The notes below the pieces were generated by a model that had not been told where the DNA came from, did no database searches, and saw only the letters and a list, made by a program, of their open reading frames with translations. Both the position numbers and the translations under genes were made by a program. Below, in pieces: positions 47,474 through 57,152 of a stretch of 64,000 nt of DNA. Origin of the DNA: Candidatus Methanomethylophilaceae archaeon (GTDB lineage: Archaea; Thermoplasmatota; Thermoplasmata; Methanomassiliicoccales; Methanomethylophilaceae); the NCBI GenBank assembly GCA_050944155.1, contig JBMNQN010000001.1:64001-128000 (forward strand), written 5' to 3'. Each line of letters starts with the position of its first letter. The first letter of the stretch is position 1.

Positions 47474-47578
47474 GCCGAGATGGCTCAGCCTGGTGGAGCG
47501 TCGGACTCATAGGGTTCTGGTCTTCAGACCTCTTCCAGGGAAATCCGAAGGTCCTGGGTTCGAACCCCAGTCTCGGCA
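47474..47578 (+). tRNA. tRNA-Met (CAT), elongator type, with 31-nt intron at 37/38 (47512-47542)
   Basis: GCCGAGA/TCTCGGC acceptor stem, TCGGA-ctCATa[intron]a-TCCGA anticodon arm, TTCGAAC T-loop. Confidence 0.92.
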
Positions 47579-54413: not shown

Positions 54414-55004
54414 ATGGATACGGAAACAATCATAGAATCGCTGAAAATGCACATGCCCGAAGTGGTTCTGATTGTAGGAGGACTGCTTGCGGTTCTCATA
54501 GTTTATTTTTATCTCAAGAACGAAACTTCGGCGGGTTACAAACTGTCGGTGTTTCTGGGTCTGATCGTCGGAGTTCTCATGATATACGTGGCGACGGTTT
54601 CCTGGTCGGGACTTGCGGTTTCGACGGCAATTATAGTCGTCGTGGGGGGTTTCACTCTGGTCATAAGGCCGTTCAGATCCGTGAACTTCGCGGTCATACT
54701 GGCACTGCTGGTCATGGCCGTGGCGTACATACTGCTGGGAAGCCTCGAAGGTTCCCAGGTTTACAACATAGATATCTCGTTCCTTGCGAGCGGATGGCCG
54801 AGAATAATAGTCGCCGTGGTTGCCGGGGCGTTGACATACATGATTACCAATTTCATAGAAGAAGCGATAAAAATATTCGGAAAACTTCTGAATTGGTGGC
54901 CTTTCCTGATGATACTCGGTCTGATCTGTATTGCGGAAGGAATATCCGTCGGTTTGGGACACGGTTCTGTTTACGAACTCTACCTCAGCTATACCGGAGA
55001 ATAA
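54414..55004 (+). CDS. Hypothetical multi-pass membrane protein
   Basis: ~6 hydrophobic segments. Confidence 0.8.
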   Translation: MDTETIIESLKMHMPEVVLIVGGLLAVLIVYFYLKNETSAGYKLSVFLGLIVGVLMIYVATVSWSGLAVSTAIIVVVGGFTLVIRPFRSVNFAVILALLVMAVAYILLGSLEGSQVYNIDISFLASGWPRIIVAVVAGALTYMITNFIEEAIKIFGKLLNWWPFLMILGLICIAEGISVGLGHGSVYELYLSYTGE

Positions 55005-55030
55005 GCAGTCCGACATGTTCCGTGTAAAGA

Positions 55031-55037
55031 TTTATAT
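55031..55037 (+). promoter_or_regulatory. TATA box for the tRNA-Arg / rpl41e / tRNA-Trp unit
   Basis: TAAAGA-TTTATAT, ending 25 nt before the tRNA-Arg 5' end. Confidence 0.6.
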
Positions 55038-55061
55038 TACAGGAGTCGTTGTTGGGTGAGT

Positions 55062-55166
55062 GGGCCCGTGGCTTAGCCAGGATATAGCGCTGGCCTTCTA
55101 AGCCAGACGCCTCGGGTTCGAAAGTCTCATTGAAAAAAGAGACCGAAATTCCCGACGGGCCCGCCA
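55062..55166 (+). tRNA. tRNA-Arg (TCT) with non-canonical 27-nt intron at position 59/60 (55123-55149)
   Basis: GGGCCCG/CGGGCCC acceptor stem plus G-CCA; CTGGC-ctTCTaa-GCCAG anticodon arm; T-arm interrupted by a perfect BHB whose excision restores TTCGAAT. Confidence 0.93.
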
Positions 55167-55207
55167 CAGGAAACCGTTGAGAAACGGCAGTCCAAGGAAG
55201 GTAAAAT

Positions 55208-55315
55208 ATGAAGAGAAGTTCACGCGCCTGGAAGAAACGCGGAAACCAGCGTTGGAAATGGCGCAAGAAGAAGATGAGAAGGAGAAAGAGAGCAGCGAAG
55301 ATGCGCAAGGCTTGA
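55208..55315 (+). CDS. rpl41e: Ribosomal protein L41e (eL41/eS32), 35 aa, absent from ORF track
   Basis: MKRSSRAWKKRGNQRWKWRKKKMRRRKRAAKMRKA*; RWKW plus basic helix; GAAGGT upstream. Confidence 0.85.
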   Translation: MKRSSRAWKKRGNQRWKWRKKKMRRRKRAAKMRKA

Positions 55316-55337
55316 TCAATCAGAGTCATTCTGACAA

Positions 55338-55509
55338 GGGAGTATAGGCTAACCTGGCAGACTGGCGGGCTCCAGTTATCGAGCGTGATTTGATTGAGTT
55401 GGCTGACAGTTGTGATGAATAACTGGAGCGATGACTCAATAATTTCGCGGAGGGTAGCTCCCTCCGTGGTGGAAACCCGCTGATGGGGGTTCAAATCCCT
55501 CTGCTCCCA
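55338..55509 (+). tRNA. tRNA-Trp (CCA) with ~99-nt intron (55376-55474)
   Basis: GGGAGTA/TGCTCCC acceptor stem, GCGGG-ctCCAg[intron]a-CCCGC anticodon arm, TTCAAAT T-loop. Confidence 0.92.
55385..55440 (+). ncRNA. Intron-encoded box C/D guide RNA
   Basis: CTGA 55403-55406, GTGATGA 55412-55418, guide TAACTGGAGC complementary to 55369-55378, ATGA D-like box 55431-55434. Confidence 0.75.
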
Positions 55510-55787
55510 CCTTGCGCATCCCCGGTGCCATTACCTTTCGGTCACGGAAGGTATTAACCTCTTTCGACTCTTTTTCTTTGCTATTTTTTATATCTGCAAT
55601 ATTGCAAACTCGGTTTTTATCGAAAGTCAACGGACTGCGCTGACATCGGTTCTCATGAGATCCAGGCCGGATGCGTTATTTCCGTAAGGTTCACTTTGTA
55701 AAGAACCGAGCCCACAAATTTGCGGTCGCACAGCTGTGCTACGAGGGCTTCGGAAGCCATGGTAACGGCACGTAACGCTACCGGAAC

Positions 55788-57152
55788 TCAGTTCTTGAAA
55801 CTGTGTATGGGTGCGGGTATGCGGCCTTTGCGGTTTACGAATCCGGCACATCCGAATTCGTTCACCGGCATGACGGGTCCTCCGCCGAGAAGTCCGCCGA
55901 ATTCCGCTCTGTCTCCCGCCTTCTTTCCCACGACGGGAATGAGTCTGCATGCGGTGGTCTTCTGATTCACCATACCGATGGCCATTTCGTCGGCTATTAT
56001 TCCGGAAATCGTCTCCTCGGAAGTGTCTCCCGGTATAGCCACCATGTCCAGTCCCACGGAGCATACGCAGGTCATGGCTTCCAGTTTTTCGAGAGTAAGG
56101 GCGCCGCATTCGGCCGCGCGCACCATGGAGCTGTCCTCGGATACGGGGATGAACGCACCGCTCAGACCTCCCACGTATGACGAAGCCATCACGCCTCCCT
56201 TTTTCACCTGATCGTTGAGTATGGCGAGAGCGGCGGTGGTTCCGTGCGCTCCGGTTCTTTCGATACCCATCTCTTCGATGATGTCGGCTATGCTGTCTCC
56301 CACCGCGGGAGTCGGTGCCAGGGACAAATCCACGATTCCGAAGGGAACTCCCAGTCTGTTCGACGCTTCCCTTGCCACCAGCTGTCCCACTCTCGTGACT
56401 TTGAACGCAGTTTTCTTTATGGTTTCGCAGAGGACTTCGAAATCTTCCCCTTTGACTTTGGATACGGCGGTTTTCACCACTCCGGGACCGGAAACTCCCA
56501 CGTTGATTACGGTTTCAGGTTCGGTGACTCCGTGGAACGCACCCGCCATGAACGGGTTGTCGTCGGGCGGGTTGCAGAAAACCACAAGTTTGGCGCATCC
56601 CACCGAATCGTGTTCCTTCGTAAGTTCTGCGGTTTTCTTTATGATTCGGCCCATTTTGCGGACGGCGTTCATGTTTATTCCCGCCCTGGTGGAACCCAGG
56701 GAGACCGAACTGCAGATTCTTTCGGTGGAAGCTAAGGCTTCCGGTATGGAATCTATGAGAAGAACGTCCGAATCGTTCATTCCTTTCTGAACCAGCGCGG
56801 AATATCCTCCTATGAAGTTGACGCCTATCTTTTCGGCCGCTCTGTCCAGGGTTTTCGCGATTTCGACGAAATCTCCCGCGGTCCTGCAGGCGGAAGCTCC
56901 GACTATGGATACCGGCGTCACCGAAACGCGTTTGTTCGTTATGGGAATGCCGTATTCCAGTCCTATTTCGTCTCCCACGGAGACCAAATCCTTTGCTTTG
57001 TCCGTGATTTTCGCGTAGACGGCATCGCAGAGTTCGTCCAGATTTCTGCTGCAGCAGTCCGTCAGACCGATTCCCATGGTTATGGTCCTGACGTCCAGGC
57101 TTTCGTCCTTGATCATGGTGTTCGTTTCGAACACTTCTTCAAGTTCCACCAT
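55788..57152 (-). CDS. DUF711 / UPF0210 (PFL-like fold) family protein
   Basis: [52 protein letters not shown]. Confidence 0.92.

Follow-up and report, generated by a model that had tools for sequence, protein, structure and literature searches.

The tRNA-Arg(UCU) gene at positions 55062–55166 (+ strand) of the window, by which we mean the whole stretch of 64,000 nucleotides that was analysed, is split in its T-loop by a 27-nt insert (55123–55149) between tRNA positions 59 and 60. The sequence and its comparison with relatives indicate that the gene is almost certainly functional and that the insert is a bulge-helix-bulge (BHB) intron, which would be spliced by protein enzymes. Both the kind of intron and its position (59/60) are already known, and the gene that it interrupts specifies a UCU anticodon, which reads AGA, plus AGG by wobble. 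The source assembly belongs to the Methanomassiliicoccales and is Methanomethylophilaceae-like (1.04 Mb in 27 contigs, 52% G+C, 92.36% complete).

The helices, the bulges and the 27-nt insert were all confirmed, to the base, where a preliminary description of the locus had placed them (Table 1). Two 3-nt bulges lie on opposite strands with a 4-bp helix between them, and helices flank both sides, giving a strict hBHBh′ motif made up of the 5-bp T-stem, a 3-nt bulge, the 4-bp central helix, a second 3-nt bulge and the 5-bp intron hairpin. The cut positions were deduced from the BHB-substrate rule and from the junction in intron-less orthologues. When 55123–55149 was excised in silico, ARAGORN called tRNA-Arg(tct), 78 nt long, in which the T-loop has 7 nt and the CCA is encoded, bearing out the earlier claim that excision after the second nucleotide of each bulge restores a canonical T-loop. 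The same helix-bulge-helix-bulge-helix was the RNAfold minimum-energy fold both of the whole precursor (z −4.17, 0/200 shuffles as good) and of the T-arm alone (z −2.83, 1/200 shuffles). Upstream of the gene, a GTAAACCTTTAAAT-like block, which recurs at an equal distance from the orthologous gene in most relatives, may act as an archaeal promoter.

Table 1. Features of the interrupted tRNA-Arg(UCU) locus; positions are those of the window
Feature	Position	Strand	Description	Basis
5′ exon	55062–55122	+	tRNA-Arg positions 1–59: acceptor, D-arm, anticodon arm, variable region, 5′ T-stem and first six T-loop bases	ARAGORN after in silico splicing; Rfam tRNA match 55062–55120
Anticodon TCT (UCU)	55097–55099	+		Rfam tRNA model; ARAGORN after in silico splicing
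T-stem 5′ strand (outer helix h)	55112–55116	+	TCGGG, with CCCGA at 55151–55155; 100% of cells paired in 58 sequences, two-sided changes in 2/5 pairs	RNAfold; ARAGORN; alignment
Central 4-bp helix H, exon strand	55117–55120	+	T-loop positions 54–57; TTCG, with CGAA at 55144–55147	RNAfold; ARAGORN; alignment
5′ bulge	55121–55123	+	AAA; predicted cut after 55122	
Intron, 27 nt	55123–55149	+	Inner helix h′, 10-nt A-rich loop, intron strand of H (55144–55147) and first two bases of the 3′ bulge	
Inner helix h′	55124–55128 with 55139–55143	+	GTCTC/GAGAC; two-sided changes in 5/5 pairs across relatives	
3′ bulge	55148–55150	+	ATT; predicted cut after 55149	RNAfold; intron-less orthologues
3′ exon	55150–55166	+	T-loop position 60, 3′ T-stem, 3′ acceptor strand, discriminator G and encoded CCA	ARAGORN after in silico splicing
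BRE/TATA-like promoter element, putative	55024–55039	+	Ends 22 nt upstream of the tRNA 5′ end	Read from the sequence

A single EndA locus was detected in the assembly, a 349-aa ORF (G000:C14) with two N-terminal and two catalytic-type endonuclease units (PF02778 and PF01974, two stretches each). It aligns end to end with the Archaeoglobus fulgidus enzyme (1r0v) and keeps the catalytic Tyr/His/Lys in its second, C-terminal unit, so that its architecture, as read from the ORF, is of the tandem-repeat α′2 type. An RtcB ligase is also encoded (G000:C2, 590 bits). We propose that the precursor would have no T-loop: bases 54–57 would instead be paired with the intron's 3′ end, and the hBHBh′ motif would prolong the T-stem, giving the T-arm an equivalent of the usual anticodon-arm site, 37/38. 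The single α′2-type EndA would cut each bulge after its second base, RtcB would join the exons and thereby produce a normal 7-nt T-loop, and the intron might be circularised; recognition and cutting, ligation and circularisation are all assigned here from the established behaviour of these enzymes. According to excerpts of two papers, the α′2 enzyme of A. fulgidus cleaves strict motifs, whereas ARMAN-2 pre-tRNA-Cys, whose T-loop motif is relaxed, is hardly cleaved by it (PMC3488258, PMC5829648), and by analogy the strict motif found here fits the enzyme type. A strict motif at a non-canonical site supports the view that motif strictness, rather than position, limits α′2 enzymes; what is known of how such introns work is unchanged.

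The gene was matched in 36 of 41 related genomes. Loci from 30 relatives were fetched, and 22 of them carried the 59/60 intron only, three carried it together with an extra 37/38 intron and five were intron-less, the junction in these five being exactly that predicted for the spliced product. A wider search of species-representative genomes, with a pattern that took the anticodon arm and the interrupted T-arm as its anchors, gave 79 matching stretches, and the titles of almost all of these name Methanomassiliicoccales, Methanomethylophilaceae, Methanoplasma, Methanogranum or Thermoplasmata. The archaeal tRNA gene was also seen on contigs binned as Faecalibacterium, Eggerthellaceae and Acutalibacteraceae (L032, L050 and L105, respectively), which are probably mis-binned archaeal contigs. 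Altogether, 99 of 109 loci parse as the same BHB, in 59 distinct variants with introns of 19–40 nt; the ten that did not parse comprise five intron-less loci, two two-intron loci and three failures of the regular-expression parser (L017, L062 and L104), the first of which has the same architecture by eye. The 3-nt/4-bp/3-nt geometry is kept throughout the parsed variants, and the inner helix has at least three contiguous pairs in 51 of the 59, the remaining eight having an inner mismatch near the closing end. Outside the BHB-constrained parts, the length and sequence of the intron drift freely, and its loops are often A-rich in the family to which the source organism belongs.

Covariation was measured in an alignment of 58 distinct single-intron sequences, which included the window's own and left out two loci cut at a contig end (L045 and L086). 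Paired cells amounted to 98.8%, as compared with 93.3% after shuffling and at most 51% in slid controls, and 11 pairs changed on both sides versus 5.1 in the shuffled alignments; none of 500 shuffles reached any of these measures. All five pairs of the inner hairpin covary, through CG, UA, GC, AU and GU forms, and all tRNA stems are 100% paired across the 58 sequences. The central helix is fixed save for a UA-to-UG change in four sequences, because one of its strands is T-loop sequence and the intron side alone can vary. Since the central helix and the bulges were part of the search patterns, their constancy is partly by construction, and the independent covariation is that of the tRNA stems and of the inner helix, whose hairpin was in no pattern. 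RNAalifold, run with no structure supplied, arrived at an identical arrangement of T-stem, central helix, bulges and hairpin. Taken together, the alignment and the consensus fold show that structure rather than sequence is conserved.

Four states of the orthologous gene were seen within the order: intron-less (family f7; genera g20, g6 and g4), with the 37/38 intron only (family f3; L143, L144 and L147), with the 59/60 intron only (most of family f1, plus G027 and G028) and with both introns (L025, L029, L030, L145 and L146). Such a range of states, in one gene and one order, offers modest natural material for the study of intron gain and loss. Two complementary patterns, one for the interrupted and one for the intact gene, were run over the same 401 genomes of the class, with 0 hits for the reversed-pattern controls of both; the interrupted form was matched in 41 genomes and the intact form in 157. 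One of the 41 (G211) was discarded as a chance case, consisting of an intact gene and a chance downstream match. The 48 genomes of the source organism's own family divide into 28 with the interrupted and 20 with the intact form (14/14 in genus g20, 5/5 in g6 and 1/1 in g4), and none has both. Outside the order, the interrupted form was matched in families f10 (6/46), f20 (2/7), f22 and f36, and most other families are intact. A flanking 198-aa membrane protein is syntenic in 20 of the 30 fetched loci.

By parsimony alone, an old origin followed by several exact losses is more likely than repeated gains at a single site. Within the order the intron has been lost or gained several times, and it is most likely a tolerated passenger, kept because its loss has to be exact. 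Alternatively, it could have been selected for a function of its own, by breaking an integration target in the 3′ half of the tRNA gene, by gating maturation or modification, or by yielding a stable (circular) RNA. Such a function would agree with the persistence of the intron at one site of one tRNA, both in several of the order's families and in at least four families elsewhere, and with the A-rich loops frequent in its own family, but exact losses are evidently tolerated, in 20/48 family genomes, in 4/5 genomes of family f7 and in those f3 genomes that were examined, which are intact at 59/60. The free drift in length (19–40 nt) and in sequence also argues against a selected function, and a search of 54900–55700 with Rfam at permissive thresholds returned the partial tRNA match and nothing else. 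We consider a selected function unlikely and favour the intron as a tolerated passenger. A broader proposal, that the T-loop intron of the sole AGR tRNA is old and common to the Methanomassiliicoccales and neighbouring Thermoplasmata orders, all with the 'narrow' α′2 endonuclease, is put forward tentatively, as a possibility about which we are more doubtful than confident. If true, it would contradict the review-level rule that euryarchaea with α4 or α′2 enzymes have introns at the canonical position only, and it would provide a natural series for intron gain, exact loss and the selective value of T-loop introns, for instance as a block to integration in the tRNA 3′ half.

Families f3, f4, f6 and f7 of the order have further T-loop inserts that recur and share this junction architecture (e.g. 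G030:C1:1927130–1927171, G027:C9:10986–11018 and G420:C1:1166179–1166219), and one such locus (L152) is tRNA-Trp(CCA) interrupted twice, by an intron of 18 nt at 37/38 and by one of 22 nt at 59/60. After in silico removal of the insert from eight other T-loop insert regions, ARAGORN gave one believable call (tRNA-Trp), one untrustworthy 'tRNA-Stop(tta)' and none for the remaining six. The 60/61 T-loop-insert tally was rejected as an intron count; the reversed-pattern controls hit in many genomes, that is, by chance matches. In the source organism's own family, the Arg intron alone looks real among the T-loop inserts.

A second, intron-less tRNA-Arg(UCU), the absence of which the preliminary description had left to be confirmed, was not found in the assembly. 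The ARAGORN census with introns allowed gave Arg anticodons GCG and TCG only, and neither the Rfam tRNA model (E≤1) nor the BHB-splice scan yielded an Arg UCU or CCU tRNA besides the interrupted locus, the census covering unsplit, unpermuted tRNA genes in a 92%-complete assembly. In 765 long ORFs, AGA and AGG occur at 20.3 and 11.9 per 1000 codons and account for 32.2% and 19.0% of Arg codons (51% in sum), and because no other tRNA that reads them was found, about half of all Arg codons appear to rest on the spliced tRNA-Arg(UCU). The preliminary description had noted a heavy use of AGA, and AGA is indeed the commonest Arg codon, with 34.4% of Arg codons in the window; its suggestion that decoding may depend on this splice is very probably correct.

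The interrupted gene could still be dispensable if another AGA/AGG decoder lay in the unassembled 8%, or in a split, permuted or otherwise hidden gene. The incompleteness of the assembly, its 27 contigs and the scope of the census leave some room for this, and several expected tRNAs are uncalled (Arg CCG, Arg CCU, Lys CUU, Glu CUC, Ala CGC and Ser GGA). Nevertheless, in relatives that are 98–99% complete, some in one to six contigs, the single match is the interrupted one, and an intact copy was matched in 0/28 interrupted genomes of the family and in 0/6 genomes of the same genus, all six of which have the interrupted form. We regard a second decoder as very unlikely, and the interrupted gene as the one through which AGA and AGG would be read.

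Parts of the region were present in eight RNA runs, as assembled contigs only, and four of these, metatranscriptomes, were compared. Contigs X2 (55093–55800) and X3 (55124–55670) are unspliced, and none skips the 27 nt; they may represent precursor, read-through transcript or contaminating DNA, and contigs drop rare forms. Contigs X1 and X4 touch 55068–55101 only, with two to three differences, and probably come from other organisms. The unspliced contigs are what could be expected if the insert were not removed, the gene then being a pseudogene in decay or a tRNA functional with an enlarged T-arm, but this is highly improbable, since the fully paired tRNA stems and the compensated inner helix are unlike a pseudogene, the constant 3-nt/4-bp/3-nt geometry is explained only by endonuclease recognition, the promoter-like block upstream is conserved, and the standard tRNA fold needs T-loop/D-loop contacts that an unspliced T-loop could not make. 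A self-splicing group I or group II intron was rejected as well: the insert has 27 nt versus the hundreds of nucleotides of a ribozyme core, and no Rfam intron family was matched at the gathering score or at E≤1.

In excerpts of a 2014 review, 59/60 is listed, with Marck & Grosjean 2003 and Sugahara 2008 given as sources, among the known non-canonical intron sites of Crenarchaeota/Thermoproteales (20/21 ... 53/54, 56/57, 59/60), and Euryarchaeota are described as having single introns at the canonical position only (PMC4090602). Another review of the same year, likewise in excerpt, names Korarchaeum as the only archaeon with an α2 enzyme and non-canonical introns (PMC4033280). The statement in the preliminary description that non-canonical positions are rare in euryarchaeal-type lineages agrees with these parts of the two reviews, but inside this order the intron is widespread. 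In the excerpted text of a comparative-genomics paper on the order, 'intron' is mentioned once, for a group II intron (PMC4153887), and our full-text literature searches, which covered articles as opposed to supplementary tables, found no description of a tRNA-Arg 59/60 intron in Methanomassiliicoccales.

The intron resembles that of ARMAN-2 (Ca. Micrarchaeum) pre-tRNA-Cys(GCA), described at 59/60 in the excerpts of PMC5829648, in its position in the T-loop and in protein splicing by EndA, which is predicted here (PMC5829648 and PMC3488258, both in part). The ARMAN-2 motif, however, is relaxed (hBH) and requires an ε2 enzyme with a special loop, according to the same part of PMC3488258, whereas that of tRNA-Arg is strict, having two bulges and a helix on either side, and would be served by an α′2-type enzyme. 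With the introns of Crenarchaeota/Thermoproteales it shares a BHB outside the anticodon loop and the possible occurrence of a second, canonical intron (3/30 loci; L145 and L146), but in those organisms the enzymes are of the (αβ)2 type, each genome has numerous introns and the motifs are often relaxed. Its motif architecture is identical to that of the euryarchaeal 37/38 BHB introns, on which the same enzymes are expected to act, and in geometry 59/60, with its 7-nt loop on a 5-bp stem, corresponds to 37/38; the intron differs from those in location and in that the exon strand of its central helix is the near-invariant T-loop sequence.

The preliminary description had also warned that standard scans can miss such a gene, and this proved to be so: ARAGORN missed tRNA-Arg(UCU) in the unspliced sequence even with introns allowed, and the Rfam tRNA model gave only a distorted match (31.1 bits, 55062–55120). 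The BHB-splice scan recovered the interrupted gene in this genome, and the anchored pattern recovered it in relatives. Owing to the blind spot of ARAGORN and Rfam, genomes of the order, gut and digester methanogens included, can seem to be without an AGA/AGG decoder. The archaeal mode of tRNAscan-SE 2.0, as described in excerpts of PMC8450103, searches for non-canonical introns by default, and databases may for that reason already contain the 59/60 intron call.

BHB-like shapes are frequent in the 1.04-Mb assembly, where 19,834 candidates were counted on both strands with at least 3 bp per flanking helix, and the removal of only four of these led to an ARAGORN tRNA call across the junction. 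Two of the four look genuine, namely the 59/60 intron of tRNA-Arg(UCU) and a 16-nt 37/38 intron of tRNA-Leu(TAA); the other two were rejected as sub-splices within tRNAs that already bear long introns. The BHB-splice scan found one non-canonical intron in this genome. The tRNA-Leu(TAA) gene lies outside the window (G000:C1:10118–10220), and its intron is a strict BHB at the canonical site; ARAGORN with introns allowed miscalls it as Ser(tga).

Directly 3′ of the tRNA, positions 55208–55315 (+) hold a very basic 35-aa ORF, the ribosomal protein L41e/eS32, which matches the Pyrococcus protein of PDB 6sw9 along its full length (E 0.0018) and has no match in Pfam or NCBIfam. This ORF lies 3′ of tRNA-Arg(UCU) in relatives too, the intron-less ones included, and AGA/AGG make up five of its ten Arg codons. 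Further downstream, a tRNA-Trp(CCA) at 55338–55511 (+) has an intron of ~99 nt at 37/38 (ARAGORN with introns allowed), which contains box C/D-like words and a 9-nt complement to the anticodon arm; it matched no Rfam small-RNA family, and its splice sites were not found by the strict BHB scan. We take it to resemble the euryarchaeal tRNA-Trp intron that guides ribose methylation. Elsewhere in the window, a CAU-anticodon tRNA at 47474–47578 (+) carries an intron of ~31–33 nt after the anticodon (Rfam, 57.1 bits), with a splice motif that falls outside the strict BHB definition, and is misread by ARAGORN as Ser(cga). Finally, G000:C2:1–110 and G000:C4:102034–102145 give an identical ARAGORN call, tRNA-Tyr(GTA) with intron (38,34), and because the same call stands at or near the end of both contigs, it suggests that C2 and C4 overlap or join there.
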